Assembly (NCBI GenBank): GCA_045535785.1
Contig: JAZSMH010000060.1
Location: 2,560-66,559, forward strand
Reading direction: 5' to 3'
DNA from: Clostridia bacterium
GTDB taxonomy: Bacteria > Bacillota > Clostridia > Christensenellales > DTU072
DNA length: 64,000 bases
Positions 823 to 17,462 of the stretch are shown piece after piece. The stretch's first letter is position 1; every line of letters starts with the position of its first letter. The position numbers were made by a program, and so were the translations under genes. A model generated the notes under the pieces. The model worked only from the letters and a program-made list of their open reading frames with translations, was not told where the DNA came from and searched no databases.

Positions 823-869
823 ATTTAACTACATTCTTTTAATTGGTTTTTTCGGGTTAGCAATTATAT

Positions 870-1632: not shown

Positions 1633-1669
1633 TCAACTATTTTCAACCACTGTAATTCGAAAAACGAAA

Positions 1670-1747: not shown

Positions 1748-1774
1748 AAGCCTTTTACAACGTTCCCTTGACAA

Positions 1775-3156: not shown

Positions 3157-3509
3157 CGACTAAAACCCGATTGGAAGAGTTGGAAGAAAAGCGTTCCATA
3201 CTGAAAGAAAAAATTGTGATGGAACAATACAAGGAACGGCAACTTTTAACAAAAGACGAAATCATCAAATATATAAGTACAGCCATACGAAAATATCCTA
3301 AACAACTGATTGATTTATTGGTAAAAGAAATACGCCTGTATAATGATGAAATAGAAATCGACCTTCACTTCATAGACAAGAAAAGTTCCGACGATAACAA
3401 TCGTTGGGGCTTTTGCTTTTATAATACTGAAAAGAGTTATATCGTAGATACTCACGTTTTCAAGTCGAAACCAACGGAGCATCACGTCAAAATCAAGTTA
3501 AAAGTATAA
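3069..3509 (+). pseudogene. C-terminal fragment of a large serine recombinase (coiled-coil/C-terminal region only)
   Basis: Aligns by eye to the C-terminal third of the intact recombinase at 15852..17393 (SISNLLDCMEQGI vs SIKSIMTAIENGI; RLEELEEK vs RLLNLEAS; a final 'I.LY.D..I.I' block). The resolvase catalytic domain and zinc ribbon are missing. Confidence 0.7.
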
Positions 3510-3552
3510 AAAGCACCCAACTAAACCTTTTTACGGGTTCAGTTGGGTACCG

Positions 3553-3575
3553 CTTGGCGGAGAGAGTGGGATTTG
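3553..3575. repeat. Left att-type direct repeat (copy of the tRNA-Ser 3' end)
   Basis: CTTGGCGGAGAGAGTGGGATTTG is identical to 17370-17392. Confidence 0.85.
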
Positions 3576-3720
3576 CTCCGTTTCGCTTCGCTTCACTATC
3601 ACGCCGGGGTGGCAAACAGTGGGTATCCACTGTTTGTAAGCGACATATTACGTAGTATTGGGGTGTGTCACTTATCCCCACCCGTTCAAATACCACAATG
3701 CACTTTTCTTTACAAAATAT

Positions 3721-3751
3721 ATGACGGGTGGTGATAAATACCATCCGTCAT
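3721..3751. terminator. Hairpin ATGACGGGTGG-N9-CCATCCGTCAT with T-rich flanks
   Basis: 11-bp stem with one G-T pair. It lies about 130 nt downstream of the DUF4238-like gene stop on the minus strand. Confidence 0.4.
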
Positions 3752-3882
3752 TTATTTGGCGGAGTGTGTGCTTCACTCATTGAACTTTTAATTGAGTTTT
3801 GATAAGTATTAATATCGCAATCTCTATAATAAGTTATTATTCTTTAATACAATAAAAACAATACTTATAATTCTAGAAAAAC

Positions 3883-4893
3883 TTACCAATTATGTACTAC
3901 AAACTCTTCTGCATTTTCACGTATTGCAGTATTATATCGTTGCACGGCATTATCTTTTATATGACTTATATAATAATGATTTTCATTAGTGGTATTTTTT
4001 CCTTGTGCTAATAATATTCTTGGAGTTATTGGAAGTAGCCCTACATGCGTGCCGTCTACGCGTTTATGAATAAAGGCAGGAGTATCGCTGGTAATGAACA
4101 ATGTTGGTCCGTCAGCAATTAAAAAATGAAAAGAGGTGTGCTTCAAATTTTTTAGTGCATTTTGAAAAATTATCCCTGTGTCATTTAAATACTGTCTATA
4201 GTATCGCAATAATAAGTTATGCCGCATTTCTTCTGCTGCCGTATCAAGAAAAGGCAATAGTCGTTCTTCTTCCGGAATCGATATTTCACTAAGAGGAATT
4301 ACATCATAACATAACCATGTTAGCAATTCTTCAAATTGAGCATTTGAATTGAATCCACGCCAATCCAATGCCGTAAAAAATTTCATAATATATTCGCGGT
4401 TAAATTCTGCAACCAAATTACCTGTTGCATTTAATATTTGTTCTTCGATAATTAATACTTGTTTGGACCATGCGTTTTCATACTTTTTCGACCAGTTTGC
4501 CTCAATATCTTTTATTTTTACTTTTTCAATCTCTCTACGAATGTTCTGTTTACTAACTAGAGAACCATCAGACCGTTTAATAATCCACTTATCAAAGTCA
4601 TAAAAATATTTGTTCATTTCTAGAGTATTTATAATACTATTACCTTCATATTCGACAGTGTACGATTTTAGACAAGCAAATATCAAATCTGTATCTGCTT
4701 GTGTGCAAAATGGCATCCCTGCTTTAATAGAGTGGAAATCTGTAATACCTGCAATTTTTTCTTTATTCCTTTCTTTGATAACTCCTGGTTCATTTATAAA
4801 CTCTACCTTAAGTGTACCGCTAGCGTTTGCCCATGATGACATATATGTTTGCGGAATTAGATGGTGATATTTTGCTTTGGTTTGATTTAACAT
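3883..4893 (-). CDS. DUF4238-like protein
   Basis: The N-terminus KAKYHHLIPQTYMSSW matches the HH-x-x-PQ-x-Y-hydrophobic signature I associate with DUF4238 (PF14022). The size (336 aa) is typical. There is a strong RBS (AGGAGAG), and the gene starts 44 nt downstream of the giant ORF. Confidence 0.65.
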   Translation of the reverse strand: MLNQTKAKYHHLIPQTYMSSWANASGTLKVEFINEPGVIKERNKEKIAGITDFHSIKAGMPFCTQADTDLIFACLKSYTVEYEGNSIINTLEMNKYFYDFDKWIIKRSDGSLVSKQNIRREIEKVKIKDIEANWSKKYENAWSKQVLIIEEQILNATGNLVAEFNREYIMKFFTALDWRGFNSNAQFEELLTWLCYDVIPLSEISIPEEERLLPFLDTAAEEMRHNLLLRYYRQYLNDTGIIFQNALKNLKHTSFHFLIADGPTLFITSDTPAFIHKRVDGTHVGLLPITPRILLAQGKNTTNENHYYISHIKDNAVQRYNTAIRENAEEFVVHNW

Positions 4894-4937
4894 AAACTCT
4901 CTCCTAATTCTTTTATAAAAGATAAAAAAGTATTTGC

Positions 4938-7900
4938 CTATAAAATGTCATCGTTTATTAGTTTTTCTTCCTTATCCATTGCGGCTTCGTGCCTAGATGA
5001 ACTAGCCATCATTCTTAAAATATGCGCTGCCGCAGGATACATTATTTCACACGTTTTTGCTTCTTCCTCAAGTTTCAGCGCCCTTGCAATTTCTGGCGAG
5101 CCGTCGGTTACTGTTCTAACTCCACGATTGTTTTGGTAACCAATATACACTCCCTTGTTAACTTCTTCATCGTCAACTTCTTCTAACAAAATCTTTAATT
5201 CGCTAGGTATATATTCTTCTTTTGTGTGCTTAAATGAGTTGGCAAGAATTTCTCCAAGGTGTTGTTTTTTAGCCCTATCTTCCACAGAATCACTTGGGGC
5301 ATTTTCCATTATTGTAGATATGAAGTTTGAAACCTGCGCTTGGGTATAGTCTTTAGGAAGTCTCATTCTACCCATAATTTCATATTTTGTTTTAGCAGGA
5401 AGGCTTTTGTTTTCTCGACTAATAATAGCACAATATTCCTTAGGGTTTTCCAAAAAATATCTAAGAATTCCATTTGGTGTATCTCTTCTGTCAAAAAGTG
5501 GTAAGAAAGCAAATTCTAGGCGAATAATATCTTCAGCATAATACTTATCATCTAATTTGGATAAAATTTGTTCTATATAGTAATGCTTTGAAGGGTGAAA
5601 ATTATCTTTATTAATGTTATTCATTGTAGAAATAATTTCCGTTATATCCCAATCTTCTTCTTTCTGATGATATAATAGCCATTGAAAATATCCCGCGGGA
5701 TTGTATTTTTTTATCAATTGAATTTCTATATTATTTGCGTGATTATCCATATGCCTGTGTTCAAAAAACTTTTGTGTTAGGCTCTCATCTTCTAAGATTC
5801 TTGTAGGAATAAAATAATAATTTTGAATAAACGGAATTAGCTCAGTTAGAACTTCAATATCCAAACAATTAATGAAACCATTTTTTTCTTCTTCACCATC
5901 TTTTGCTATAAATGAAGCGAGTGTACAAAATTTTTTAAGGTTTATTAATTGACTCCTTACAAAAAGTTTATCTTCTTCAAGTATATTTGCATCTGCTAAA
6001 AAAGTGCCGTCTGCACCATTGCTGGGTAAAACTTGCAACATTTTATTCAAAACGTCTCTATGATTGAATTCGTTTAGCAGTTCTTGAAGTAGCTCGTTTT
6101 GAAATTTCCTAGTTGCACGTTCTTCCTTCTCGAAATCTTCATCAATTGTTTCTGGAATAGGGCAATCATTATACCCAAAACCTTTGAAGTAAATTAATGA
6201 AGCTTCTATCTTGTCTGTCGGTTTCAAATGTGCGATGACTTTCTCAATAATTTTAATGAATTGTTGAGAATCCTTTTTATGGTATTTTATAACATCATAT
6301 CTCTTTTTTAATAAATATTCGTATAAAGACGTCGCTTCTGAAGTGTTTGGTTGATAGGTTTCAACAATGTAATTTGTAATCTTCTCAAAGGTCTTGGGAG
6401 GTATTTGATGATAATTTTTAATAAGTGTTTTTAGTGTTTTTGTGTCAGAAAAAACAATTGTATTTATTGTTGCAATAATAACCCTATCAATAGCGTTAAA
6501 TAAAACTCCGTACGTTAAATCTTCATTTTTTAAGTCAGGGTCTCTCCATTTCAAAGTTGAATCGGTTAAACAAGCAGAAGTCTTAAATACTATTTTAATT
6601 GCGTAGGGAATAAACTTATTTCCATATTTTGCAATACTTTGCTCCATAAATAGTATCTTATCTTCAAAAGACATAGCGTTTTTATTATTATGCAACCACA
6701 AAATGTTTTCTAATGTTTCGCTAGGTGAGTTGGAAATTTTATAAGTAAATCCTTTTTGAATTAGTTTGAAAAGAATTTTACAAACTCTAATTTTATAATT
6801 GTCTATTCCGCTTAAAGATTCTAATGCCCATAAAAGAGTGCAATAATTATGCCCACCGCCGAAAAGGAAGTCTGCATCATTATTACTGAATAGTTCCCAA
6901 ATTAGACTAGTGTCTTTTTTAATTTCAGCCTCAATAAAGGATAAGAATCTTTCAGGAGAACTCTCTGCTAAAGTTTTCATATAATCCGAAATAGTAAATA
7001 TCATCTCTTTTGAAGATATTGATTTTAATATTTCGTCAATTACCGAATCAACCTCAAGTTGCATTTCGTTGTATATTGACAATAAAATGCAAGAATCTAA
7101 TAACCCTTCGATTAAATAACCACTGTATTGCCACACTTTATTATAAAGTTGATGGGCAAACTGCTTATCTCTTGGTAAGTCATATTTTGGATTAGGAGCG
7201 GAAAAAATAGTTTTAACACTTTCTAATAGTTTTTCTATTGTTTCGCTTGTTATGCTTTTAGAAATTGCACTCCACAATTCCTCTTTTAGGCTAACTTTAA
7301 TAAAGTCCCCGTAACTTAATAACGGACTATTGTCTATGTTTTCCCAACGGCTAATTTTACTGAGATATTGGTCCACCGTTTCTCCGTTCGGTAAAAAAAC
7401 GGATAAAGCATTTCTATCAGATTGACTTTTTTTGTTGATTTTTCCAACCATTAGTAATGGTATTAGTGATGGTAAGTCCTCTTTTGTTCGCCATAAATTC
7501 GACGAATGGCAAGTTTCATTTTCAAGTTCGCGAACGGTTAAAAAAACATTGTTTTTCGCTAAATGTGACAACTTTCTAAGCTGTGTAGTTGAAACACTCA
7601 TTTCATTTTTTAAAATGTCGGATAGCACGGATTGTGGTCTATGCCAAAGTTGGATGTCTATTTTATTATCGCTTATATCCTTACCATAAATAAATATAGT
7701 TGTATTTTTTGAATCGCTTAAATTATAGTTTGAAACATTGCTGTCTAATATCAATATTTTATCGCTAGTTAATGTATTAATCTTTTGCAAAGAAGCATAA
7801 TCTCGACAAATAACTGTTCTTAAATTGTTTTCATCCAAAGCAGTTTCTATCATTGCAGAAATTACAAAACCGTATGCTTCATAAAAAGAAGGTCCCGCAA

Positions 7901-8774
7901 CCTTAATAACCTTTTTGTCTTTAATACTTTCTATTAATGCTTCAACTTCTTTTTCTCTAGAAGCAGTAAAAATCTTGGTTGATAGTTGTGGGGTTGTTGC
8001 GTTTATTAGTTTTTTATGTGCTAAAGCAAGTGTATCAAGAGATAGTTCTTGTCCGCATATATTTTTGTACATCCAAACGCTTGTTGCAAGATTATGCGAT
8101 AGCCATTCTTCTAATTCAACTGACGTGTATACTCTTACTTCCTTCCAAGAACTACCTAAAATATTCTTTTTGATTTCTTCAATAGATTTTGTTTTAAGAG
8201 GTGCTGGCGTAACTAACACAAATGTGGTTTGTTTCTTTTGGTTAACACCGATTTGAGCGTCGCGCTTTTCAAAATCAGCGAGTATTTTAGTTTTAGAAGT
8301 TTTTACTGTTGCTCCTAACTCCCAAAAACTTTCACCTTCGGGAATATATAAAGATTTGGGAGAAACTACATTTAAGAATCCGTCAACACCATCTAAAGAG
8401 ATTTTATCACCTTGAGGAAAACGAAATTCTTTAGGAAAAGTAGTGAGACTTTCCTTTAAAAGTCGTCCAATTAATTCAGGAAACTTTCCTTGAGAATCCC
8501 TTTGATTATCAGCAAACCAATTTTCTATTTGAGTTGCCGTTATCAGTTTGTAGCCCAATTGATAGGGGTTGCTTTTGTAAAATTCAACACCGTTCTCTTT
8601 GCAAAAATCATATAATTTTTTTTCAGTACTAGCATGTGGCGTCGTCAATCCCTGCTCCCAACGATTAATTGTAGCAAAAGCAACGCCTAATTTTTTAGCC
8701 AATTCTTCTTGTGTAATACCTAATTCTTCTCGCACAAAGCGTATTTTTTCTGAAAATTCCATTTTTGTCCCCAT
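4938..8774 (-). CDS. Giant (1278 aa) protein: N-terminal XRE-type HTH, possible nuclease-like module, long uncharacterised mostly helical body
   Basis: The 3.8-kb ORF is uninterrupted. The HTH reads IRFVREELGITQEELAKKLGVAFATINRWEQG. No Walker A (G-x4-GK[ST]) is found anywhere. The likely true start is ATG at 8762 (MEFSEK), with a GGGGA RBS. Confidence 0.85.
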   Translation of the reverse strand: MGTKMEFSEKIRFVREELGITQEELAKKLGVAFATINRWEQGLTTPHASTEKKLYDFCKENGVEFYKSNPYQLGYKLITATQIENWFADNQRDSQGKFPELIGRLLKESLTTFPKEFRFPQGDKISLDGVDGFLNVVSPKSLYIPEGESFWELGATVKTSKTKILADFEKRDAQIGVNQKKQTTFVLVTPAPLKTKSIEEIKKNILGSSWKEVRVYTSVELEEWLSHNLATSVWMYKNICGQELSLDTLALAHKKLINATTPQLSTKIFTASREKEVEALIESIKDKKVIKVAGPSFYEAYGFVISAMIETALDENNLRTVICRDYASLQKINTLTSDKILILDSNVSNYNLSDSKNTTIFIYGKDISDNKIDIQLWHRPQSVLSDILKNEMSVSTTQLRKLSHLAKNNVFLTVRELENETCHSSNLWRTKEDLPSLIPLLMVGKINKKSQSDRNALSVFLPNGETVDQYLSKISRWENIDNSPLLSYGDFIKVSLKEELWSAISKSITSETIEKLLESVKTIFSAPNPKYDLPRDKQFAHQLYNKVWQYSGYLIEGLLDSCILLSIYNEMQLEVDSVIDEILKSISSKEMIFTISDYMKTLAESSPERFLSFIEAEIKKDTSLIWELFSNNDADFLFGGGHNYCTLLWALESLSGIDNYKIRVCKILFKLIQKGFTYKISNSPSETLENILWLHNNKNAMSFEDKILFMEQSIAKYGNKFIPYAIKIVFKTSACLTDSTLKWRDPDLKNEDLTYGVLFNAIDRVIIATINTIVFSDTKTLKTLIKNYHQIPPKTFEKITNYIVETYQPNTSEATSLYEYLLKKRYDVIKYHKKDSQQFIKIIEKVIAHLKPTDKIEASLIYFKGFGYNDCPIPETIDEDFEKEERATRKFQNELLQELLNEFNHRDVLNKMLQVLPSNGADGTFLADANILEEDKLFVRSQLINLKKFCTLASFIAKDGEEEKNGFINCLDIEVLTELIPFIQNYYFIPTRILEDESLTQKFFEHRHMDNHANNIEIQLIKKYNPAGYFQWLLYHQKEEDWDITEIISTMNNINKDNFHPSKHYYIEQILSKLDDKYYAEDIIRLEFAFLPLFDRRDTPNGILRYFLENPKEYCAIISRENKSLPAKTKYEIMGRMRLPKDYTQAQVSNFISTIMENAPSDSVEDRAKKQHLGEILANSFKHTKEEYIPSELKILLEEVDDEEVNKGVYIGYQNNRGVRTVTDGSPEIARALKLEEEAKTCEIMYPAAAHILRMMASSSRHEAAMDKEEKLINDDIL

Positions 8775-8797
8775 ATAACATTTATAACTTTTATAAC

Positions 8798-8826
8798 ATT
8801 ATACCTCAACATTTAAATTTTGTCAA
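8798..8826 (-). promoter_or_regulatory. Consensus sigma-70-type promoter for the giant HTH gene
   Basis: The minus strand reads TTGACA-17 nt-TATAAT. The leader contains three GTTATA repeats at 9-bp spacing. Confidence 0.65.
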
Positions 8827-8864
8827 TAATTTATGTCATTTATTAAAAACCACTACCTTTCCAC

Positions 8865-8893
8865 TTGACATTTAATTCTAATTATTGTACTAT
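8865..8893 (+). promoter_or_regulatory. Promoter for the methyltransferase operon
   Basis: TTGACA (8865-8870), 17-nt spacer, TACTAT (8888-8893). It is divergent from the giant-gene promoter. Confidence 0.55.
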
Positions 8894-8926
8894 ATAAACA
8901 CTTGGATGTTATAGGATGTGAAAAAT

Positions 8927-10873
8927 ATGAGATTTATTGGAAGCAAGACAAATTTACTGAACAACATAAAGCAAGTTATAGATGATAATTGCACTGACAA
9001 TAATGAAATCTTCTGTGATATTTTTTCTGGGACGGGAGCAGTATCGAGATTTTTTAAGCAAGATTATCAAATTATAAGTAATGACTTGCTATATTTCTCC
9101 CATATTTTAACTGCTGCAACTATTGAAAACAATACTATACCATCATTTGAAAAATTAAAAGCAAAAGGAATTTTAGACCCTTTTGCTTATTTAGAATCCA
9201 ACGACCTTCCTCTTTCTTTAGTAAACGGCTTTGTTACAGAAGAATATTCGCCTAAAGGAAGAGCAGGACGTATGTATATAACCGAAAACAATGCAGAAAG
9301 AATTGATTTTATTAGGACTACTATTGAAGAATGGAAAACTAAAAAATGGATAGATTCTTACGAGTATAAATATCTTTTAGCTTGTCTTATAGAAGGAGTA
9401 CCTTTCGTGTCTAACACCACAGGGACTTATGGTGCTTATTTAAAAAAGTGGGACAAACGTGCATTTAAGCGCTTTGAACTATTCAAATTAGCCGTTATTG
9501 ATAATAAGCGTAGAAATATTTGTTATAACGAAGATGCCAATGAATTAATAAAAAAAATTAGTGGCGATATTTTATATATTGACCCTCCTTACAACGATAG
9601 ACAATATCTTCCTAATTACCACGTTTTGGAAACCATTGCTAAATATGATTCGCCTTGCGTAAAAGGAGTAACAGGCGTTCGTCCATATACAAATGAAAAA
9701 TCAAGTTATTGTATAAAATCAAAGGTTAAGGAAGCTTTTGACGATTTAATCAAAAACGCCGATTTCAAACACATTGTTATAAGTTATAGCGACGATGGGC
9801 TACTCTCTGTAGAGGAAATAATTGAGATTTTAACTAAACACTGTATGCTTGATAGCATTAAAAAGTACGATATACCGTATGCTCGTTATAAAGGCAAATT
9901 AGAACAAGCAAAAAAAGAACATAACGAATATATATTCTACGCAAAGAAAGACATTATTCGTTCAAGTGTAGTCGAAAAGAAGGTTAAAGCGACTCGTAAA
10001 CCAACCGATAGCATAGACAAAAAACGCTTTATAAAAAGTCCTATGAATTATATAGGTGGTAAATACAAATTGTTGCCTCAATTAATGCCCCTTTTCCCAC
10101 AAAACATTAACACCTTTGTTGATTTGTTTGCAGGAGGATTTAATGTTGCCGTAAACGTTAAGTCAAACAAAACCATTTGCAATGATTTAAACTATCTTGT
10201 TGTTGAGATGGTAAGAACATTAGCCTATGCTGATATAGATATTGTTTTGAAACGTATTGATGAGAAAATTGCAGAATATGGGTTATCTAAAGAAAATGAA
10301 GAAGGGTTTAAGGCTTTTAGAAACTTTTATAATGCCAATCACAACCCAATTGATTTGCTAACACTATCTAGTTTTTCTTTTAATTATCAATTCCGTTTTA
10401 ACAGCAACTTAGAATATAATAATCCATTTGGAAGAAATCGAAGTCAATTTTCAGAAACTATGAGACAAAATTTAATTTTGTTTATGTCGGAAATGAAAAA
10501 GAAAAATTTGGAATTTTATTCGAGAGATTTTAGAGAAATATCTTTAGATGGATTATCAGATAATGACTTTATTTATTGCGACCCTCCGTATTTAATTACG
10601 AATGGCTCTTATAATGATGGAAATAGAGGTTTTCACGATTGGGGTACTGACGAAGAAAAAGCTCTTTACGAATACCTTGATGAGGCAAACAAGCGCAATA
10701 TTAAGTTCGCTCTTTCTAATGTTTTATTCCACAAAGGAATTGAAAATAAAATATTGATAGACTGGTCAAAAAAATATAAAATTCATTACATTAATAGCGA
10801 CTATTCAAATTGTAATTATCAATATAAAAATAAAGAAACAACGTCTGTTGAAGTATTAATCACTAATTATTAA
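8927..10873 (+). CDS. Fused double N6-adenine DNA methyltransferase (two Dam/D12-class domains; M.FokI-like architecture)
   Basis: Domain 1 has RFIGSK, FCDIFSGTG (motif I) and DPPY at 9581-9592. Domain 2 has YIGGKYKLL, FVDLFAGGF and DPPY at 10580-10591. The ORF track starts at GTG 8918; I prefer ATG 8927 (MRFIGSK). Confidence 0.85.
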   Translation: MRFIGSKTNLLNNIKQVIDDNCTDNNEIFCDIFSGTGAVSRFFKQDYQIISNDLLYFSHILTAATIENNTIPSFEKLKAKGILDPFAYLESNDLPLSLVNGFVTEEYSPKGRAGRMYITENNAERIDFIRTTIEEWKTKKWIDSYEYKYLLACLIEGVPFVSNTTGTYGAYLKKWDKRAFKRFELFKLAVIDNKRRNICYNEDANELIKKISGDILYIDPPYNDRQYLPNYHVLETIAKYDSPCVKGVTGVRPYTNEKSSYCIKSKVKEAFDDLIKNADFKHIVISYSDDGLLSVEEIIEILTKHCMLDSIKKYDIPYARYKGKLEQAKKEHNEYIFYAKKDIIRSSVVEKKVKATRKPTDSIDKKRFIKSPMNYIGGKYKLLPQLMPLFPQNINTFVDLFAGGFNVAVNVKSNKTICNDLNYLVVEMVRTLAYADIDIVLKRIDEKIAEYGLSKENEEGFKAFRNFYNANHNPIDLLTLSSFSFNYQFRFNSNLEYNNPFGRNRSQFSETMRQNLILFMSEMKKKNLEFYSRDFREISLDGLSDNDFIYCDPPYLITNGSYNDGNRGFHDWGTDEEKALYEYLDEANKRNIKFALSNVLFHKGIENKILIDWSKKYKIHYINSDYSNCNYQYKNKETTSVEVLITNY

Positions 10874-10880
10874 GGTATTT

Positions 10881-11858
10881 ATGGATAAAGAAATAAAAAC
10901 AATCCCTGCTAAAAACATTAAAAAAGAAGATATAGCAAGATTGCCTCTATGGGTACAAGAAAACCTTGACTCTGCCATTCTAATTGGTAGTTCTTATAGA
11001 ACAATCCAATTGTTAGATGGGAGAAAATATTCATTAGATAATGAAATAAATGATTTAGATGGCGCAGAATGGACAAAAAACATTTGCTCGGTTATTAATA
11101 CTCATTATTCAACCAAAGGGGAAGATAGCTTTGCTCACGACATCAGAAAGGTCCACCCAACCCCAAAACCTCCTCAACTAATGAGAGATTTAATAAAGTT
11201 TTTTACAAAAGAAAACGATATTGTATTTGATTATTTTATGGGTGTTGGTGGTTCCCTTCTCGGAGCAGCACTTTGTAATCGACGAGGTGCCGGAATTGAT
11301 TTAAATGAAAAATATGTCGATTCTTATAAAAAAGCAGCATCTAAGTTGAATTTACCTGTTTTCCCGTGCATAGTTGGAGATAGTAATGACATTTTAGATA
11401 ATGACTCCAAAGTTACTAGCTTATTGAATAATGAAAAAGCAAGTTTAATACTTATAGACCCACCGTACGCTAATATGATGTCAAAACCTAAAACAGGTGC
11501 CGATATTGCAGTATATGGGAATATTGCAACCCCTTTTACTGATTTCGATAATGATATAGGTAATTGTAGCTACCATGAATTCCTAAATAAGCTGAAAAAC
11601 ATTGTATCAAAATCATTGCAATATCTTAAGAATAAAGGGTATCTAATAGTTTTTTGTAAGGACATGCAACCCAAAAAGAAAGAACCTCATTTGTTGCATT
11701 CAGACATAGTAAATGCGTTAAACGAGATTCCTTCGTTATATTTTCGTGGATTAAAAATTTGGGCAGACCAAACGGTCAAATTATTCCCTTATGGTTATCC
11801 ATTTGATTTTGTTTCAAATCAAATTCATCAATATATTTTAATTTTTAGAAAATACTAG
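10881..11858 (+). CDS. Third DNA methyltransferase (N6A/N4C type, DPPY)
   Basis: Contains HPTPKP, FDYFMGVGGS (AdoMet motif I) and LILIDPPYANM (DPPY at 11457-11468). It starts 7 nt after the fused methyltransferase stop. Confidence 0.75.
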   Translation: MDKEIKTIPAKNIKKEDIARLPLWVQENLDSAILIGSSYRTIQLLDGRKYSLDNEINDLDGAEWTKNICSVINTHYSTKGEDSFAHDIRKVHPTPKPPQLMRDLIKFFTKENDIVFDYFMGVGGSLLGAALCNRRGAGIDLNEKYVDSYKKAASKLNLPVFPCIVGDSNDILDNDSKVTSLLNNEKASLILIDPPYANMMSKPKTGADIAVYGNIATPFTDFDNDIGNCSYHEFLNKLKNIVSKSLQYLKNKGYLIVFCKDMQPKKKEPHLLHSDIVNALNEIPSLYFRGLKIWADQTVKLFPYGYPFDFVSNQIHQYILIFRKY

Positions 11859-13237
11859 TCTATTCCGATGTTCTTAAAAGCATCTTTTACCGCCTGTGGC
11901 GCAGCATCGTTGATTATAACTTTTCCTTGATTATTACAATATATTAGAACCGATTCATGTGGAAGAGTTGTTCCTTCTCCACCAAATAAAGTAATCCATC
12001 TAGTTATTGTATAACCAGGGTAACTAGGTTTAATATGCTCATTTTCTATCGCATCATACCCTCTAATATCATGCAATCCTTCAGCGAGTTTATTGTACAT
12101 TTTACCTTCTACAAGATAAATTTCTCTAGTTGAATCATTACGTAATACCACGTCGGGTAAAAGAAGATTATCTTCTCCACCAGCATCTTTTTTATGGAGT
12201 GTGGTAAAACTTCCGTTTGCTTCTCTAAAATAACTTCTTTCGCAACCTGCGTGATTTTCATAGATACCATGTATTCCCGCATATTGACAAGTCAAGTGCA
12301 ATAAGATAGATGCTACTTTTTCGGAAGACATGGCATATTGCCAATAATGTTCAGGAAGTTCAATATTAGCAGGCAATGTAATCCCATCTAACTGTACATT
12401 TAAAATTTTACAAATTCTGATGAATTTATTTCCACTGTTCCTTGATGCATACGATTGAGAAACCCCATGTTGTGTAATAATTATTTTTCCTGCCCAACCA
12501 AGTTTCCTCAAAGTGCTTGCTATACAAGTTAAAGTTCCTATATTAGGGTCGTGTCCAATATTTCCTTTATCTTTTGGTTTGGAAAGCATACCTGAAACAG
12601 TTATAGTTTCATCACTTAACTTGTTTATCAATATAGGAGTATTTGTTTTATTTGGTAACCGCATATTCCCCTTAAACTCTATCATTTCGTCAACGGAAGT
12701 AAAAGCGCAAAATGGGGTCATAGTCTTGCCTAAGAATCTAACGTCTTGAGCTAAAAGCATATTTGTACCAAATATGTTTGTTTGGGTCGGTGTTCTGTCA
12801 CTATCAGGCGTTGCTTCTTCATTATACAACATATACTTTGGCGTATCTGGACAATAATAGTTTGCATACGTAAACTTAGAGGCTCTCTGACCAATACCTG
12901 TATTTCTTGATTCAGCATCACTTGTTTTAGTTTCTTCCAATAAAAATACTATATTGTTTAGCGAGTGATTTGCAGGAACTTCTTCTTGTTCTACAAGCAT
13001 ATAGTCCATAAAGCTTGAATAACCACTAATAATTTTTATATTTATTTCTGAGATGTTACCAATATTTGCGCTTTCAACCACATACTCAAACGAGAACAAA
13101 CCGTGTTGTGTTTTAGGTTTGATTTTAATATCACCACAAGTCAAAGTTTCATTTTTTAATTTGCAGTATTCTTGAAGAATTGTTAACACTACCGAATTTT
13201 TAGGGCGTTCCTCTGTAAGAATCCATAAGTTGTTCAT
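11855..13237 (-). CDS. Putative restriction endonuclease of the R-M module
   Basis: Convergent with the third methyltransferase, overlapping it by 4 bp. It has a C-terminal PD-x14-E-G-K motif (LLLPDVVLRNDSTREIYLVEGK, nt 12101-12157). It shows no similarity to the FokI nuclease that I can see. Confidence 0.55.
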   Translation of the reverse strand: MNNLWILTEERPKNSVVLTILQEYCKLKNETLTCGDIKIKPKTQHGLFSFEYVVESANIGNISEINIKIISGYSSFMDYMLVEQEEVPANHSLNNIVFLLEETKTSDAESRNTGIGQRASKFTYANYYCPDTPKYMLYNEEATPDSDRTPTQTNIFGTNMLLAQDVRFLGKTMTPFCAFTSVDEMIEFKGNMRLPNKTNTPILINKLSDETITVSGMLSKPKDKGNIGHDPNIGTLTCIASTLRKLGWAGKIIITQHGVSQSYASRNSGNKFIRICKILNVQLDGITLPANIELPEHYWQYAMSSEKVASILLHLTCQYAGIHGIYENHAGCERSYFREANGSFTTLHKKDAGGEDNLLLPDVVLRNDSTREIYLVEGKMYNKLAEGLHDIRGYDAIENEHIKPSYPGYTITRWITLFGGEGTTLPHESVLIYCNNQGKVIINDAAPQAVKDAFKNIGID

Positions 13238-13507
13238 AAAAATTTTTCTCCCGTATAATAACTGAGCTTATATTATAACATGTTTTCGGTAAAATATCAA
13301 TTCATTTACTCAGTTCATAGCTAAACAGCCTAAAAGTGGGTTTCCCACTTGTTTTAGAGTCGAAATTGCAATTTGGTGCAATTTCCTTAACCTGCTTAGG
13401 CGTTGAAATCTGCATCATTTTTTCGGGAAAAACGCACCGCTAAAAATCTTCTAAAAAGTTTATAAATATGACACACTTTGTCATCTTTACTTTGGTATAA
13501 TAGGACT

Positions 13508-14554
13508 ATGGATAAATTAGCATATCACTACAACAAGAAAAAACTACCCGCTAAAACTGAGGGTAAATATCTATACTATTATCCTTGCGATGATATTGAA
13601 AACGCCACCGTTCAAATGGGTGGGCGTGGTTTTGTCACGATTGAAGTAAGCGAGAAAGAATGGGAAGCGTTAATTGAGTTAGATAGGATTGAGTATAATA
13701 ACGAGCATAAATACGTACGCCATACTGCTGAACTTCTCGATGAAGAAGATGAAACTTTAACTGCAAAGCAACTAGAAAACTTCCACGTTAAGGATACCCC
13801 TATAGATACAAAAGTGGCAAACTATTACTACAAAAAAGACCTATATAACCAACTTACCGAAGATGAAGAAAAAGTTCTTAAAATGCTTGAAAACGGCGCT
13901 ACTCAAAAAAATATAGCTAAAGCATTAAACGTTACACAAGGCTACGTTTCAATGATTAAAGCCAAAGCACAATACAACTACGATTATGCAGAACAAACTA
14001 CAGCTATAAAAACTAATTGTCCCGAATACCTTTGGAAGTGTTGGAACTTGTTTGCTAAAAAGTTAGAAATGCCGATGTTCTTAGACGTAGAAATGGAATA
14101 TGTATTAAGACATCTCCATCCTAACGATATAGCCCACTTCCTTTATTGGTATTATAGTTTGGGCGAATTTGTCCGTTTTTCTATTAGATACTATCTATAT
14201 AACGAGGAAGCGCTTGAAAAAGAAAAGTCGGAGTATCTATCTAAGGCAAGCGACCAAGAGCTTGCTTGGTATTTACAAAACTATGCCGATGCAGTTCCTT
14301 TGGTACAAATCGTATATATCCGTTTAATTACCGAAGTTGAATGTCGTAGAGAACGTGGATTGCACGGTAATAATAAAGCGGCAGACGGCTTATATACCGC
14401 TGTGGAGAAGCTTGCAAAGCGTGTAAATATATCACCCGAAGAATATTACGAAAAGCGTATTTATCCTATCATAGTTAATATTCGTACTAGACGAATAAAG
14501 CAGTTTTACCGCTTCTATTCAGGCAAGACACTAAAAAAATTAAATTATTTTTAA
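13508..14554 (+). CDS. HTH protein with sigma-70 region-4/LuxR-like motif (mobile-element regulator)
   Basis: The motif is LTEDEEKVLKMLENGATQKNIAKALNVTQGYVSMIK. ATG 13508 lies 6 nt after an extended -10 (TGGTATAAT); the track start TTG 13478 lies upstream of that promoter. Confidence 0.6.
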   Translation: MDKLAYHYNKKKLPAKTEGKYLYYYPCDDIENATVQMGGRGFVTIEVSEKEWEALIELDRIEYNNEHKYVRHTAELLDEEDETLTAKQLENFHVKDTPIDTKVANYYYKKDLYNQLTEDEEKVLKMLENGATQKNIAKALNVTQGYVSMIKAKAQYNYDYAEQTTAIKTNCPEYLWKCWNLFAKKLEMPMFLDVEMEYVLRHLHPNDIAHFLYWYYSLGEFVRFSIRYYLYNEEALEKEKSEYLSKASDQELAWYLQNYADAVPLVQIVYIRLITEVECRRERGLHGNNKAADGLYTAVEKLAKRVNISPEEYYEKRIYPIIVNIRTRRIKQFYRFYSGKTLKKLNYF

Positions 14555-14685
14555 AAAGTTTTCAATTTTACTAATATTTTCCTTCTTCTCGTGGCTTATA
14601 AGTGGAGGGAGCAATTCTGAACGATGACCTAATGAACAGGTTGTCGTTCTTTTTTATCCCTTAAAAAACAAAAAGGAGGTGAAAA

Positions 14686-15465
14686 ATGACTAATTGGAAT
14701 TACGAATATTATGAAAACCCTATAAGGGACAAGCACGCTACTATTTCCGTTCTCACGTTTAAGAAAGATGAATTGTCTGAACAAGACGATTATCTTAAAG
14801 AAGTTGAACAAACTTATAAAACGGAGTGGTTAAAACCTATGTTATCTAATTTTGAACAAGAATGGATACGAATTAAAACCAAACACAACGCAAGATTTTT
14901 TAATCGCGGTAAGAACATCGCATTAGAATGTTTGCAGTTCGGTGGTAATCACGAGTTTTGGGACGATTTCCCCGATGAATACGAAATATTAGCGTATTTC
15001 AAAAGATGTTATGCTTTTGCAATCGAAACTATTGGCTACAAGCAAACTGATACGAACATCATTTGCGCCATTATCGTTACCGAGCCAAACCGAAGAAACC
15101 TTTTCGTGTATTACTTGCCACTAACGAACAGTTGGCAACGAAAGGTTTGCGGAAACGAATTTTCTCAATGTGGAAGTAGATTGCAATTAAGAAATGATGA
15201 CGGCAAACCCGTTTATCGTACAATACATAGCGACGTAAAGCCATTACTTTGCCACTCTGAATTTTGGAAGCAACGTGGCGGTTTAACGTCTTACTCTGAC
15301 CTACAAGAGAGATTTTACAACGAAATATCTTATAGGTACGGAGCTGAACGTGGCGAAAGCTTGTCAAGATTAAAGTACACGTCTAAAGAACAGATTAAAC
15401 GTTTTAATCGTAAAGAAGGCGATGACTACGACGTTATCCCTATAACTTCGGACATTTGGATTTAA
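14686..15465 (+). CDS. Mob/Pre (MobV)-like protein, apparently lacking the histidine metal-binding motif
   Basis: Strong RBS (AAAGGAGGTG). The block ICAIIVTEPNRRNLFVYYLPL sits where MobV relaxases carry HxDExxPHxH. The downstream YSDLQERFYNEISYRYGAERGES resembles the conserved 'LQD.F....G..RG' block. Confidence 0.4.
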   Translation: MTNWNYEYYENPIRDKHATISVLTFKKDELSEQDDYLKEVEQTYKTEWLKPMLSNFEQEWIRIKTKHNARFFNRGKNIALECLQFGGNHEFWDDFPDEYEILAYFKRCYAFAIETIGYKQTDTNIICAIIVTEPNRRNLFVYYLPLTNSWQRKVCGNEFSQCGSRLQLRNDDGKPVYRTIHSDVKPLLCHSEFWKQRGGLTSYSDLQERFYNEISYRYGAERGESLSRLKYTSKEQIKRFNRKEGDDYDVIPITSDIWI

Positions 15466-15533
15466 CTGATGCCAAGTGTCTATTTATTTTATCAGTACAT
15501 AACCAAAAAAATCAAGGAGGAAAATTGTGGTTT

Positions 15534-15674
15534 ATGGTTAAAGATTTACTAACAAACACAACGCATCTGTTGAGATGTAGTTTATTGGTGTTCTGCCATC
15601 AGGAAAGAGGACATTGTATCCGCACAAATAAAAAATTAAGGAGATTTGAAAAGACATTATTTAGACGAATTTAA
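15534..15674 (+). CDS. Small basic Cys/His-containing ORF (hypothetical)
   Basis: AAGGAGG at 15514-15520 lies upstream. It contains CSLLVFCHQERGHC. The start is uncertain (TTG 15525 or ATG 15534), and it overlaps the next ORF. Confidence 0.2.
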   Translation: MVKDLLTNTTHLLRCSLLVFCHQERGHCIRTNKKLRRFEKTLFRRI

Positions 15675-15855
15675 CAAGGTGGAAATTAACCTTTCCACCA
15701 ACGAAGTGGCAACTTCACCACTTGAATTAGATGATGAAACACTAACAGCAAGCGCTTCGGTGCTTGCAAATATGTTGTTAGACTTTGTACGAGATAACAA
15801 CTCGTATGAAAATCTAACACCTAAGAACGTTTTTAGAAAGGAGAACAAACAATGA
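15646..15855 (+). CDS. Small acidic protein, translationally coupled to the recombinase (possible directionality factor)
   Basis: TTG start with an AAGGAG RBS. Its stop overlaps the recombinase ATG (ATGA). Confidence 0.4.
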   Translation: MKRHYLDEFNKVEINLSTNEVATSPLELDDETLTASASVLANMLLDFVRDNNSYENLTPKNVFRKENKQ

Positions 15856-17393
15856 AAAAAGCAGTAATCTACGCAAGATTTAGTTCGCACTCTCAAACCG
15901 AACAATCTATTGAAGGTCAACTACGTGAGTGCTACGATTTTGCAAAGCGAAGCGACATTACAATCGTTGGCGAGTACATAGATAGGGCTTTAACGGGAAC
16001 GTCAGATAAACGTCCACAGTTTCTTAAAATGATTGAAGATAGCAAGAAAAAGAGCTTTGAGTACGTTTTGGTTTACCAATTAGACCGTTTTGCCCGTAAT
16101 CGTTACGACAGCGCCAACTACAAAGCAAAATTAAAGAAAAACGGCGTAAGAGTTTTGTCTGCAAAAGAAAACATTACCGACGATGCAAGCGGAATACTTG
16201 TAGAAGGTATGCTAGAGAGTATGGCGGAGTACTACTCCGCCGAACTTTCTCAAAAAGTTAAGCGTGGCATTAAAGAAAGCCTTATAAAAGGCAATTTTAT
16301 AGGCGGTCACGGACTTTTGGGCTACGACACCGTTGATAAAAAGTGGACGATTAACCCACTTGAAGCAACAGTAGTTAGAGATATTTTTACAAGATACCGA
16401 AACGGAGAGAAAGCAAAAGATATTATAGCTCGCCTAAACGCATCGAGTATTAAAACTAAGTCAGGCAAAAAGTTTTCTATGAGCCAACTTGCCCGTATTA
16501 TACGAAATGAAAAGTATATGGGCATTGTTAACGTGGACGGAAAAGTCTATACAAACGTAATTCCACCTATCGTGGATGAAAAATTATTTAGGGAGTGTAA
16601 TTTAATTATGGATTTACATAAGCATAAACAAAGAAAGAACTATGACGAACAACCGTATATTTTAAGCGGTAAACTCTTTTGTGGGTATTGTGAATCGGCA
16701 ATTACCGCAGAAACAGGCACGAGTAAAACGGGACGTGTTTACCATTACTACAAGTGTTACGGAAAGAAATTAAACCCAAATGACTGCCACAAGAAAAACG
16801 TGAGCCAAGATTTTATTGAAACACTTGTATTTGAAGCGACTATAAAATACGTGCTACGCCCAAAAGTTATTGATAAAATCGCTAAACTTGTTGCAGATAA
16901 GTTTAACGCAGAACTATCTATGCCAACCGTTTTATTATCGCTACAAAAAGAACTTAAAGAAGTCAATAAGTCAATTAAGAGCATTATGACGGCAATAGAA
17001 AACGGTATCTTTACAAAGACAACAAAAGACCGCTTGCTAAATCTTGAAGCAAGTCAATCCGACCTTGAAAACAAGATAGCCGTTGAAGAAGCAAGACAAG
17101 TTAAACCTTTACAACCTAACGAAGTTAAGAAATTTTTAACCTATTTTGCCTATATGAAATACGAAAAAGGCGAAGAAAAAAACGAGTTCTTTAACTCGTT
17201 TATAAATCGTGTTATTTTGTATGATGATAAAGTTATTATTCTCTACAACTCAAACGATAGAGAAACTAAACGCCTTAATAAAAAGCAGTTAAAGGAAATT
17301 GAAAATGGGAAAAACCTTGAAGAAATAAAAGAAAACTCGTCTGAACATAAAAAGTTCAAACGAGTTGCTCTTGGCGGAGAGAGTGGGATTTGA
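15852..17393 (+). CDS. Large serine recombinase/integrase
   Basis: The resolvase domain has KKAVIYARFSSHSQ and YQLDRFARN. A recombinase domain and a zinc ribbon (CGYCES...YYKCYGKK) follow, then a long coiled-coil C-terminus. The last 22 nt lie inside the tRNA-Ser gene. Confidence 0.9.
   Translation: MKKAVIYARFSSHSQTEQSIEGQLRECYDFAKRSDITIVGEYIDRALTGTSDKRPQFLKMIEDSKKKSFEYVLVYQLDRFARNRYDSANYKAKLKKNGVRVLSAKENITDDASGILVEGMLESMAEYYSAELSQKVKRGIKESLIKGNFIGGHGLLGYDTVDKKWTINPLEATVVRDIFTRYRNGEKAKDIIARLNASSIKTKSGKKFSMSQLARIIRNEKYMGIVNVDGKVYTNVIPPIVDEKLFRECNLIMDLHKHKQRKNYDEQPYILSGKLFCGYCESAITAETGTSKTGRVYHYYKCYGKKLNPNDCHKKNVSQDFIETLVFEATIKYVLRPKVIDKIAKLVADKFNAELSMPTVLLSLQKELKEVNKSIKSIMTAIENGIFTKTTKDRLLNLEASQSDLENKIAVEEARQVKPLQPNEVKKFLTYFAYMKYEKGEEKNEFFNSFINRVILYDDKVIILYNSNDRETKRLNKKQLKEIENGKNLEEIKENSSEHKKFKRVALGGESGI
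17370..17392. repeat. Right att-type direct repeat (within the tRNA-Ser 3' end)
   Basis: Identical to 3553-3575. Confidence 0.85.
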
Positions 17394-17462
17394 ACCCACG
17401 GTACCCTTTTGGGGTACACACGATTTCCAATCGTGCTCCTTCGGCCCCTCGGACATCTCTCC
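17372..17462 (-). tRNA. tRNA-Ser (anticodon GGA), class II with long variable arm, CCA encoded
   Basis: The reverse complement is GGAGAGATGTCCGAGG...CACGATTGGAAATCGTG...GGTTCAAATCCCACTCTCTCCGCCA. It has a 7-bp acceptor stem, an anticodon loop TTGGAAA and a T-loop GGTTCAAATCC. Confidence 0.9.

Follow-up and report, generated by a model that had tools for sequence, protein, structure and literature searches.

Large serine recombinases (LSRs) are seldom linked to tRNA targets, and in the Islander paper it is stated that serine recombinases are not known to target tRNA genes (PMC4383910). The 64,000-nucleotide stretch of DNA analysed here (the window) raises the question of how a 13.6 kb island with defence cargo aboard came to lie against the 3′ end of tRNA-Ser(GGA), beside an LSR gene, and where that island begins and ends. 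The original prediction held that the LSR had put the island there and that the pairing of enzyme and target was worth noting. Comparative evidence gives strong support to the former, and the latter agrees with the literature, in which such a pairing is unusual (PMC4383910). We regard it as very likely that window positions 3765-17370 represent an integrative, probably mobilisable element that was inserted by its own LSR at the extreme 3′ end of the tRNA gene (Table 1).

Table 1. Features at the left border, in the interior and at the right border of the island; positions are those of the window.
Feature	Position	Strand	Evidence or remark
Second, older LSR, C-terminal remnant	3069..3509	+	BLASTP E 1e-11
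Hairpin 'term2', terminator-like	3512..3551	-	Terminator scan; directly behind the tRNA-like end of the module
Left copy of 23-bp repeat	3553..3575		21-nt copy of tRNA-Ser 3′ end in the module, plus 'AG'
tRNA-linked module	3555..3702	-	Covariance model R1, 87 bits, E 1.6e-19
Hairpin 'term1'	3721..3751		Terminator scan; now host-side (B′) arm of attL
attL core TTGGCGGAG	3756..3764		Rightward sequence common to L040/L045 left ends; leftward sequence host-specific
P′ arm tgtgtgcttcactcattgaacttttaattgagtttt	3765..3800	+	In tRNA sense, GTTCAA-N17-CCGCCAA
DUF4238 protein, 336 aa, cargo	3883..4893	-	Pfam PF14022, E 1.5e-22
1278-aa cargo protein, N-terminal XRE-type HTH	4938..8774	-	Pfam HTH_3, E 2.8e-12
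Type II restriction-modification (R-M) system, cargo	8918..13237		PADLOC and Pfam
Fused double D12 methyltransferase	8918..10873	+	Part of R-M system
N4/N6 methyltransferase	10881..11858	+	Part of R-M system
Restriction enzyme	11855..13237	-	Part of R-M system
358-aa backbone protein, sigma-70 region 4/LuxR-type HTH	13478..14554	+	Pfam; kept with LSR in other hosts
259-aa backbone protein, MobV (MobM/Pre) relaxase fold	14686..15465	+	AlphaFold2 and Foldseek
Two small backbone ORFs, 72 and 69 aa	15456..15855	+	Just upstream of LSR
LSR, 513 aa	15852..17393	+	Pfam and PHROG
P arm, ...aaaactcgtctgaacataaaaaGTTCAAACGAGTTGCTC	17331..17370	+	Within LSR 3′ end
attR core TTGGCGGAG	17371..17379		Last 8 nt of tRNA (CTCCGCCA) plus 1 nt
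tRNA-Ser(GGA)	17372..17462	-	ARAGORN; supplies B arm of target

The element measures 13,615 bp and its two junctions have just 9 bp in common. An attL was found in three hosts, namely the window and the loci L040 and L045, and in each of them a host-specific terminator is followed by TTGGCGGAG and then by a conserved P′ arm, which over 36 nt is 94-97% identical between the window and L040 (2015-2050) and L045 (699-734). The element of the genus relative G008 has the same attL layout with an 8-bp core, CTTGGCGG. On the tRNA strand the P arm at the other end reads as a hairpin followed by a T run. Among the attR flanks of 28 loci the motif GTTCAAACGAG was present in 23, with a near-variant in the remaining five, and in the loci whose LSR is 97-99% identical the entire P arm is near-identical. 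Comparison of attR sites across loci showed that the element arm is conserved around GTTCAAACGAGTT and that the host tRNAs diverge past TGGCGGAG, after which the identity between element and tRNA ends in 24 hosts. The identity is therefore only ~8 bp, as expected of a serine integrase, and the crossover is bounded to TTGGCGG at best. An offset of 5 bp between the attP and attB half-sites has reportedly been described by Rutherford et al. The distance from GTTCAA to CCGCCAA is 17 nt in the P′ arms of the elements of this genome (G000), G008 and G004, and 12 nt in the tRNA. For the other half-site, comparing the P arm with the terminator, no clear motif was seen in attB, and the host-side B′ arm (the terminator) differs between hosts, which is unusual for an attB with two half-sites.

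In 24 loci from other species, with LSRs 63-99% identical, the LSR gene runs into the 3′ end of an oppositely oriented tRNA-Ser and stops there, the anticodon being GCT in 13, TGA in five, GGA in four and CGA in two; that of G008 likewise ends inside a tRNA-Ser. A sister clade (64-73% LSR identity) contributes three loci at tRNA-Met, and tRNA-Ser is the target in 24 of the 27 related loci with a called tRNA. This LSR is site-specific, not promiscuous. It had been proposed that relatives without the island be searched for an empty tRNA-Ser site, and such a site was seen in five members of the genus (G022, G007, G006, G018 and G001), in which tRNA-Ser(GGA), its terminator and a small module, described below, follow one another with 46-52 nt between tRNA and module and no island; in this genome the tRNA-Ser(GGA) with its terminator and the module are 13.6 kb apart. 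Two scans of metagenomes for the predicted attB or its flank gave no match, nor did searches for the attP junction in viral contigs and for the element backbone in phage and plasmid collections.

The element is laid out as a 4-kb backbone, comprising the HTH protein, the MobV-fold protein, two small ORFs and the LSR, with the remaining ~9.5 kb taken up by cargo. The backbone (window 13330-17400) shows ~95% DNA identity in L040, L044, L045, L048 and L059, where the cargo differs; the ~9.5 kb serves as a bay in which cargo can be exchanged, and in this genome it contains a Type II R-M system, a giant HTH protein and a DUF4238 protein. The defence cargo that had been claimed for the island was identified by PADLOC as the Type II R-M system (MTase_II, E 2e-260; MTase_II, E 1e-121; REase_II, E 9e-54), and the DUF4238 protein had no PADLOC match. 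The claim of a Mob/Pre-like gene stood as to fold and fell as to sequence family. The AlphaFold2 model of the 259-aa protein (pLDDT 80, pTM 0.77) gave seven best Foldseek matches in the PDB that were all MobM (best E 1e-4, probability 1.0), and this relaxase fold suggests a role in mobilisation. However, the protein had no Pfam match even at E 10 (PF01076 included) and no NCBIfam match, and its metal-binding histidine triad (the HxDE..PHxH site) is replaced by an invariant T-E-P-N-R-R-N (TEPNRRN); as the canonical metal-binding histidines are missing, self-mobilisation is doubtful. The 72- and 69-aa ORFs gave no family matches and are candidate directionality or regulatory factors.

These features bear on a reading in which the element was integrated by its LSR in the past and is now a fixed relic, unable to excise from this genome. 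No directionality factor was recognised in the island, and the catalytic-site histidines of the MobV-fold protein are absent. Such a relic seems rather unlikely to us, because the LSR retains an intact reading frame and the two att arms of the element are near-identical to those of copies in many other species whose LSR is 97-99% identical, a sign of very recent transfer. LSR genes that are complete or nearly so were found at this level of identity in 12 loci from other species, and five of the longer of these loci, those with the ~95% identical backbone, carry different cargo. We favour an element inserted by its own LSR, one that may still be active in this genome.

The limits of the island had been placed at a 23-bp exact direct repeat, CTTGGCGGAGAGAGTGGGATTTG. 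Both copies were confirmed (3553-3575 and 17370-17392), no such repeat arose in 100 shuffles of the window, and the two are the only copies in the 2.16-Mb assembly. The right copy corresponds to the last 21 nt of tRNA-Ser(GGA), CCA included, plus 2 nt, because the tRNA called by ARAGORN lies at 17372-17462; as had been stated, this tRNA is intact, and it is the sole gene for the GGA anticodon in the assembly. Under an alternative in which the repeat is the att duplication, the island would run from 3553 or 3576 to 17392 and 3576-3755 (200 bp) would be its own left end. The repeat is indeed exact and statistically unexpected, and tDNA islands are classically recognised by a 21-23-bp block that extends from T loop to CCA. 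This alternative is nevertheless very improbable: 3555-3702 is a copy of a module that stands behind tRNA-Ser(GGA) in the five island-free relatives and also behind other tRNAs, other copies of the element end at TTGGCGGAG and the P′ arm with no module sequence inside, and the G008 element has only 8 bp in common with its target. The real attL lies 203 bp further inward than the left 23-bp copy. The interval between the repeats is, as claimed, more AT-rich than the DNA to its right (33% against 40.8% GC, with 39.5% genome-wide), but the DNA to its left is equally AT-rich (33.9% GC in window 1-3552, 32% at the contig start) and composition is therefore no marker of the left border.

The module is a stranger item than the LSR island, and it lies outside it. 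With its terminator the ~150-nt module spans 3553-3755, and the left 23-mer is its tRNA-like 3′ end. It has a 5′ end, GTGGTATTTGAAC, with complementarity to the T arm of the tRNA, then a conserved core, GAACGGGTGG...CCACCCCGGCGTGATAGT...CGGAGC, and a 3′ end, CAAATCCCACTCTCTCCGCCA. Homologues are located behind tRNA genes in 21 of 28 genomes of the genus, and in this genome behind other tRNAs as well; the family trails Leu, Pro, Gly, Ala and Arg tRNAs and is present in 14 of 95 sampled genera. Comparison with Rfam gave no family at the gathering score and, at E <= 10, only noise of 14-17 bits. In E. coli the 178-bp repeats distal to tyrT (rtT RNA) are units that end in the last ~19-21 nt of the tRNA and occur in tandem copies. 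The module resembles them as a repeated unit placed after a tRNA and in its terminal copy of the tRNA 3′ end, but the two do not match in sequence or structure; the core of the module recurs behind different tRNAs, and its 5′ arm shows complementarity to the T arm. The left 23-bp copy is thus the end of an independent, tRNA-linked module that is present in island-free relatives, and the repeat forms part of a more extensive duplication that has nothing to do with integration, an outcome that the original prediction itself had named as a refutation. It is an accident of neighbourhood, a module with a copy of the tRNA end having already stood behind the tRNA.

The LSR contains Resolvase (PF00239, residues 4-143, E 1.6e-29), Recombinase (PF07508, 171-254) and then Zn_ribbon_recom (PF13408, 270-329) domains, and a serine nucleophile motif, YARFSS, can be read at residues 7-12. 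It matches PHROG 95 'integrase' (E 2.5e-115), its best PDB sequence matches include the catalytic domain of the TP901-1 integrase, and no phage record exceeds 42% identity to it. TnpX-type recombinases have an additional domain, DUF4368, which is typical of a multi-targeting clade. Pfam found nothing in the LSR above cut-off beyond the three domains named, DUF4368 not being among the matches. In line with the claim that this is the only recombinase between the repeats, domain searches of the island ORFs revealed no second recombinase gene in that interval. Placement of the island by a tyrosine integrase, one supplied in trans or lost in the meantime, with the LSR as a resolvase, an invertase or cargo, would accord with tRNA 3′ ends as textbook targets of such enzymes (PMC4383910) and with the four tyrosine recombinases encoded elsewhere in the genome (four PF00589 matches genome-wide, none on the contig of the island), but is improbable in the extreme given that the LSR gene is fused to the att site in at least 24 independent hosts with the P arm inside its coding region, that the common core is 8-9 bp, where tyrosine-type tDNA islands typically have 20-50 bp, that no tyrosine recombinase is present in any of the related elements examined, and that the LSR has a complete integrase-type domain set.

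In the mechanism that we propose for insertion by the LSR, this enzyme, for which the strand exchange of serine integrases (attP x attB recombination with a 2-bp staggered double-strand break) is predicted, would join element and chromosome at the 9-bp core TTGGCGGAG, made up of the 8 nt that end the tRNA and one more, and the circular form would be 13,615 bp. The half-sites of the element would be the P arm in the 3′ end of the LSR gene and the P′ arm (3765-3800), and those of the chromosome would be the acceptor/T-arm DNA of the tRNA (GGGATTYGAAC) and the tRNA terminator. Because the common core spans ...CTCCGCCA, the tRNA would be unchanged by integration; only its terminator would be swapped, the putative substitute being the hairpin and T run in the LSR 3′ end. 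The final codons of the integrated LSR gene (GGESGI-stop) are supplied by the tRNA gene, its TGA stop at 17391-17393 lying inside that gene, and the excised form would encode an LSR of 521 aa, not 513.

Several known systems resemble this one in part. In the ssrA islands of Dehalococcoides (DsiB; McMurdie et al., 2011, PMC3146451) a ~540-aa CcrB-like large serine recombinase likewise lies on the border of the island, integration is directed to a small RNA gene whose 3′ end is tRNA-like, the recombinase gene contains the repeat of that 3′ end (an analogy only), and there is tandem stacking with varied cargo beside a conserved 'integration module'. In that case the gene is that of a tmRNA (ssrA), the direct repeat is 20 bp and a T-loop crossover was proposed (PMC3146451), whereas here the target is a true tRNA-Ser (and tRNA-Met), the core is 8-9 bp and the crossover would fall within the last few nucleotides; the island ORFs also lack DsiA (a small serine recombinase), recF-like, ParB, Mom and pseudo-tRNA counterparts. 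The phage-type serine integrases (A118/LI, Bxb1, phiC31, TP901-1 and SPbeta) share with the LSR the Resolvase-Recombinase-zinc ribbon order, short att sites of little identity and, as far as the tRNA-side half-site is concerned, an apparent outward shift of 5 bp in attP relative to attB, but the element here is without phage genes. To our knowledge none of these five integrases has a tRNA gene as its target. The targets of these enzymes are protein-coding or intergenic, in contrast to the tRNA gene entered here (PMC4383910, PMC10654092).

The description of the island as Tn4451-like holds only for the general architecture. As in Tn4451/Tn4453 (TnpX LSR with TnpZ Mob/Pre) and other serine IMEs of Firmicutes, one LSR, a MobV-type protein and cargo make up a small element with very short flanking repeats. 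TnpX is GA-specific and of low site specificity. The likeness fails in that the MobV-like protein here misses Pfam Mob_Pre and the histidine triad, and in that the LSR is site-specific, with no DUF4368 match and no relaxed choice of GA targets. Excision and integration of Tn4451 take place by recombination between 2-bp identical att sequences (Guedon et al., 2017, PMC5704250), and site-specific serine IMEs disrupt dispensable protein genes (PMC5704250), whereas the present element enters specifically at the end of a tRNA gene, which it leaves intact. The SCC elements of staphylococci (CcrA/CcrB) similarly enter a conserved housekeeping gene at its 3′ end, leave it functional and form tandem or composite arrays. 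CcrB (121.6 bits) and CcrA (120.5 bits) are also the best NCBIfam models of the LSR, yet these scores are far below the cut-offs of 900 and 700; moreover a single recombinase is present here instead of a pair, and integration is into a tRNA gene instead of rlmH. The tDNA islands of tyrosine recombinases (Islander/TIGER type) also lie behind an intact tRNA at a hotspot, with stacked elements and defence cargo, but differ in enzyme family and chemistry and in that a block of 20-50 bp restores part of their tRNA, where the island here has an 8-9-bp core at the very end of the gene. Assignment of the island to this type was considered and rejected, as its ORFs contain no PF00589, the 23-bp fragment belongs to the module and the distal junction has only 9 bp.

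Beyond the module, an LSR remnant marks an older, stacked element. When the genome was searched with the LSR by tblastn, this remnant (3069-3509) was the only match besides the intact gene; it corresponds, at 32% identity, to residues 364-463 of the full-length LSR and has none of the ~360 N-terminal aa. In term2, xTGAAC lies 10 nt past CCGCCAAG, a spacing equal to that of the LSR P arm (compared with the P arms of G000 and G008), and term2 is for this reason probably the P arm of an old, decayed LSR element. The AG of the left repeat copy may derive from the att core of that element; in the right copy the AG sits on the P-arm side of the attR of the island. Judging from the order tRNA-terminator-module in relatives, the hairpin term1 is probably the host terminator that served tRNA-Ser until the island came in. 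Tandem LSR elements with attP-like inner junctions were also seen at two loci from other hosts (L056 and L086), and such inner junctions are not predicted by the canonical rule of attP x attB recombination only.

The 23-mer CTTGGCGGAGAGAGTGGGATTTG was found in the window only at 3553-3575 and 17370-17392, with no copies expected by chance, and its count in the whole 2.16-Mb, 71-contig assembly (G000) was also two. This confirms the repeat that the original prediction had described, including the placement of its right copy in tRNA-Ser(GGA), and from the coordinates of that gene it follows that the right copy covers the 3'-terminal 21 nt of the tRNA and two further bases. The interval between the repeats, which had been described as AT-rich, is indeed poorer in GC than the DNA to its right (33% against 40.8%, with 39.5% for the genome), but the left flank is equally AT-rich (33.9% in the window, 32% to the contig start) and is not core chromosome either.

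Coordinates of the features discussed (window positions unless a contig of G000 is named)
Feature	Position	Strand	Description
Putative membrane anti-sigma protein	178-822		
ECF-type sigma factor	870-1394		
tRNA-linked module	3555-3702	-	Source of left 23-mer
Large serine recombinase (LSR) ORF	15852-17393	+	513 aa; Resolvase, Recombinase and zinc-ribbon domains
tRNA-Ser(GGA)	17372-17462	-	
Further module copy	C55:518-658		
Further module copy	C25:854-1002		
Further module copy	C22:60146-60295		

The TGA stop of the large serine recombinase (LSR) gene falls within tRNA-Ser(GGA), and the four tyrosine recombinases encoded in the genome all lie on contigs other than that of the window. When the LSR protein was scanned against one genome per species, 79 distinct loci were recovered. 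Full or near-full genes of 97-99% identity were present at twelve loci from other species, all of them Christensenellaceae and Clostridia gut MAGs whose sources, by record title, include roe deer, sheep and goat. Wherever the LSR reached 63% identity or more and a tRNA could be called, the LSR gene terminates within a tRNA gene encoded on the other strand. This target was tRNA-Ser in 24 loci (anticodon GCT in 13, TGA in five, GGA in four and CGA in two) and tRNA-Met(CAT) in three, the latter from a clade of 64-73% identity. In the genus relative G008, the tRNA-Ser(GGA) is occupied in the same way by an LSR of 66% identity. At junctions of the attR type the element side is kept around GTTCAAACGAGTT, being near-identical among the 97-99% loci (...aaaactcgtctgaacgtaaaaaGTTCAAACGAGTTGCTCT), and the tRNA side past TGGCGGAG differs with the host tRNA; identity between element and target is therefore only ~8 bp. 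These loci document a whole LSR clade that specifically targets the terminal nucleotides of tRNA-Ser genes, whatever the isoacceptor, and a sister clade that uses tRNA-Met. This targeting in related loci bears out the central idea of the original prediction, an LSR island at tRNA-Ser.

In other species, several LSR elements adjoin tRNA-Ser fragments of 20-27 nt and not whole genes. At three such loci (L051, L042 and L062) the same element adjoins just a 22-27-nt 3' fragment downstream of the LSR stop, which suggests that later insertions displaced the element from the gene. An LSR lineage of 34% identity in G004 (L149, G004:C18, 6223-13141) likewise uses the end of a tRNA-Ser, but there the LSR gene occupies the other end of the element, from which it reads outward. 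At L056 (~234-269) and L086 (~1021-1082) LSR elements stand in tandem, and the junction between them resembles attP, with TTGGCGG flanked by a P arm and a P' arm; recombination strictly limited to attP and attB would not yield such an arrangement.

The 23-mer had also been taken to mark the borders of the island, and this did not hold for the left end. Other loci were queried with the sequence just inside window position 3765, and the 36 nt beginning there, tgtgtgcttcactcattgaact.ttaattgagtttt, were also present in two of the loci from other genomes, L040 and L045. In both, this P' arm is preceded by TTGGCGGAG, before which stands a host terminator hairpin that differs between them. The window shows the same order, with the core at 3756-3764 and a hairpin at 3721-3751 on its left, and the element of G008 has an end of the same type with the core CTTGGCGG. 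From these left-end matches the island is placed at 3765-17370, its left junction lying at 3756-3764, with 13,615 bp between the cores and a GC content of 33.2%. Read in the sense of the tRNA, the P' arm carries GTTCAA 17 nt before CCGCCAA and the T arm of the tRNA carries it 12 nt before. The N17 spacing is repeated in G008 and in the 34%-identical LSR element of G004. An offset of 5 bp between attP and attB half-sites, as in N17 versus N12, was reportedly described by Rutherford et al. in 2013. The crossover can be confined to TTGGCGG. Hosts with TGGCGGAA retain their own A at attR, and the cores of G000 and G008 overlap within these 7 bp. Scoring of attP and attB for dyad symmetry gave no clear centre. 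The sites predicted from sequence are ...GTTCAAACGAGTTGCTC-TTGGCGGAG-TGTGTGCTTCACTCATTGAAC... for attP and ...CCATCCGTCATTTAT-TTGGCGGAG-AGAGTGGGATTTGAACC... for attB.

The C-terminus of the LSR varies with the state of the element and with the host. The sequences concerned are window 17370-17393 and 3765-3800. In the integrated form the protein ends ...ALGGESGI, and its TGA stop codon is contributed by GGGATTTGAAC, a motif of the tRNA T arm; in the excised form it would end ...ALGGVCASLIELLIEF-stop at 521 aa. The T-arm stop is absent from hosts whose tRNA has GGGATTCGAAC.

The left copy of the 23-mer belongs to a small tRNA-linked unit, here called the module. On the tRNA strand its 5' part, GTGGTATTTGAAC, is complementary to the T arm of the tRNA and is followed by GGGTGG, a variable hairpin, CCACCCCGGCGTGATAGT, a short variable stretch and CGGAG, and the 3' end is CAAATCCCACTCTCTCCGCCA. 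Members of the family are ~110-180 nt long, lie 39-53 nt behind tRNA genes, share a conserved core and end in a tRNA-like 3' copy followed by a terminator. A covariance model based on seven copies detected one to six per genome in 21 of 28 genomes of the genus; of 95 sampled genera of the order, 14 gave hits. The copies examined lie behind Ser, Leu, Pro, Gly and Ala tRNAs, and behind tRNA-Arg in one order-level genome, and in every one of them the 5' arm is complementary to, and the 3' end identical to, the adjoining tRNA (~20 final nt). The outer and inner helices covary, with double changes at 11 of 18 pairs and a score reached by none of 500 shuffles; the covariation of the outer helix is largely due to both arms tracking the tRNA. 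As for the two bases by which the repeat (23 nt) exceeds the tRNA end (21 nt), the AG of the right copy lies in the P-arm side of the island attR and that of the left copy probably derives from the att core of an old LSR element to its left; the extra bases would have separate origins in the two copies.

Tandem module arrays sometimes occur. At L157 (G096:C7:71878-72610) four units with a period of ~194 bp immediately follow tRNA-Arg(ACG), and every unit closes with the 3' end of that tRNA and an identical terminator. They are reminiscent of E. coli tyrT, which has 178-bp repeats behind the gene; a literature search through this tyrT/rtT analogue returned nothing usable on the module.

The module was considered as a known RNA and this was rejected, there being no match in Rfam. 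Between the sense and antisense strands no bias was seen in folding energy or in GU count (p = 0.054), and this, together with the GU-poor helices, might point to a DNA or single-stranded DNA hairpin that mimics its target rather than to an RNA gene. Such a hairpin may be likened to the folded attP of CTX phage. The filled site of G006 aligns with the empty sites of G011 and G012 right after the tRNA-like end, and the unit is therefore an insertion. No tyrosine integrase was found near any of the four module copies of G000. It is possible, although we hold it rather unlikely, that the family represents undescribed small, non-autonomous, retargetable elements that insert at the T-loop or 3' end of many tRNA genes and rebuild a clean attB as they do so. 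The proposed unit would comprise a terminator, a 5' arm complementary to the T arm of its own tRNA, a conserved core and a copy of the last ~20 nt of that tRNA; its insertion behind tRNA-Ser would supply a fresh tRNA end with a terminator, and so a clean attB. Such rebuilding could account for the alternating stacks of LSR island, module and LSR island in G000, G018 and G004. The modules, a widespread family with arms that covary with the adjoining tRNA, may be of more importance than the island.

Evidence for stacking came from the left flank. The ORF at 3069-3509 encodes just the C-terminal part of an LSR; it aligns with residues 364-463 of the intact LSR at 32% identity and faces the tRNA-like end of the module across a hairpin with P-arm spacing. 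The same pairing of remnant and module is present in G018, where the remnant frame runs through the pseudo-tRNA end (...AGESGIS...), and in G004 the series of element, core, terminator and module occurs twice in succession, first with an LSR element and then with a 5-kb element of LSR type. The two terminator-plus-module units that alternate with the LSR-type elements there (L149) are near-identical. The locus in G000, with its LSR remnant, module and island, is thus a stack of an old LSR element, a module and the present island. The hairpin at 3512-3551 was rejected as the native tRNA terminator, because in relatives a module separates such hairpins from the tRNA, and because the spacing is that of an LSR P arm. 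A plain chromosomal origin of the left flank was likewise rejected, given its low GC to the contig end, the ECF sigma/anti-sigma pair, the ABC transporter and the LSR remnant. This flank (window 1-3156 and C51:1-2559) also holds a lipoprotein and the ABC transporter ATPase/permease, and was probably carried as cargo by the older LSR element, now decayed; the contig ends within the flank.

Comparison with island-free relatives, which the original prediction had proposed, revealed what are in effect empty tRNA-Ser(GGA) sites at genus level. In five genomes (G022, G007, G006, G018 and G001) a module homologue lies 46-52 nt behind tRNA-Ser(GGA), with the terminator alone between them and no island, and the island of G000 is found precisely in the space from the tRNA to the terminator that precedes the module. 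Searches for an excised form or for an empty site within the species yielded neither. Neither the predicted attB nor the left flank plus core was matched in a metagenome pattern scan, an exact-protein look-up of the flanking phosphoesterase gave no match, the attP junction pattern was not found in viral contigs, and the island backbone DNA had no match in phage or plasmid collections. A look-up of the MobV-fold protein cluster returned just one contig, of 4.3 kb, which breaks at the att site. The island may be active in G000. The closest LSR in the phage collection (41.6% identity) is on MT836484.1, an unannotated 'Bacteriophage sp.' contig from a human faecal virome whose size (13,522 bp) is island-like; this may be a relative in excised form that was packaged into, or purified along with, virus-like particles.

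It has been stated that serine recombinases are not known to target tRNA genes, and on that ground the Islander work limited 'integrase' to the tyrosine family (PMC4383910). Mycobacterial surveys give tRNA sites for tyrosine integrases only (PMC10654092), a review of IMEs has those with serine recombinases disrupting dispensable protein genes (PMC5704250) and a large catalogue of LSR att sites makes no mention of tRNA (PMC10083194). The nearest precedent is provided by the Dehalococcoides ssrA islands, in which the gene for a ~540-aa serine recombinase contains the repeat of the tmRNA gene (PMC3146451). The rule that tyrosine integrases use tRNA genes and serine integrases other sites, which is built into island-finding software, is weakened by the present clade, which also illustrates how a tRNA gene can be used, and left undamaged, by an enzyme that needs only very short identity. 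The known set of natural attB sites conserved in many bacteria is enlarged, which is of use for integrase-based engineering of hard-to-transform gut anaerobes. A caution also follows, that tRNA-fragment repeats are not reliable at face value as island borders.

The backbone of the island (13330-17400) is ~95% identical in L040, L044, L045, L048 and L059, with differing cargo, and encodes a 358-aa HTH protein, a 259-aa protein, two small ORFs and the LSR. For the second of these, whose family comprises at least 389 clusters, no match was obtained in Pfam, NCBIfam, PHROG or PADLOC. With the AlphaFold2 model of this 259-aa protein (pLDDT 80) the only significant Foldseek matches were MobM (MOBV) relaxases (best E 1e-4, probability 1.0). 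Invariant residues of the family include R14, H17 and T-E-x-x-R-R-N, the last at the position of the motif that in MobM is a histidine triad. The earlier description of a 'Mob/Pre-like' gene is thus right as to the predicted fold and putative as to the function. The cargo consists of a Type II R-M system, in agreement with the defence genes that had been predicted, a 1278-aa HTH protein and a DUF4238 protein. Near-identical LSR copies in twelve other species, from ruminant and other gut samples, carry exchangeable defence cargo. Elsewhere in the window, ARAGORN reported a 68-nt tRNA-like gene at 26230-26297 (minus strand) with an undetermined 2-nt anticodon ('tRNA-???').
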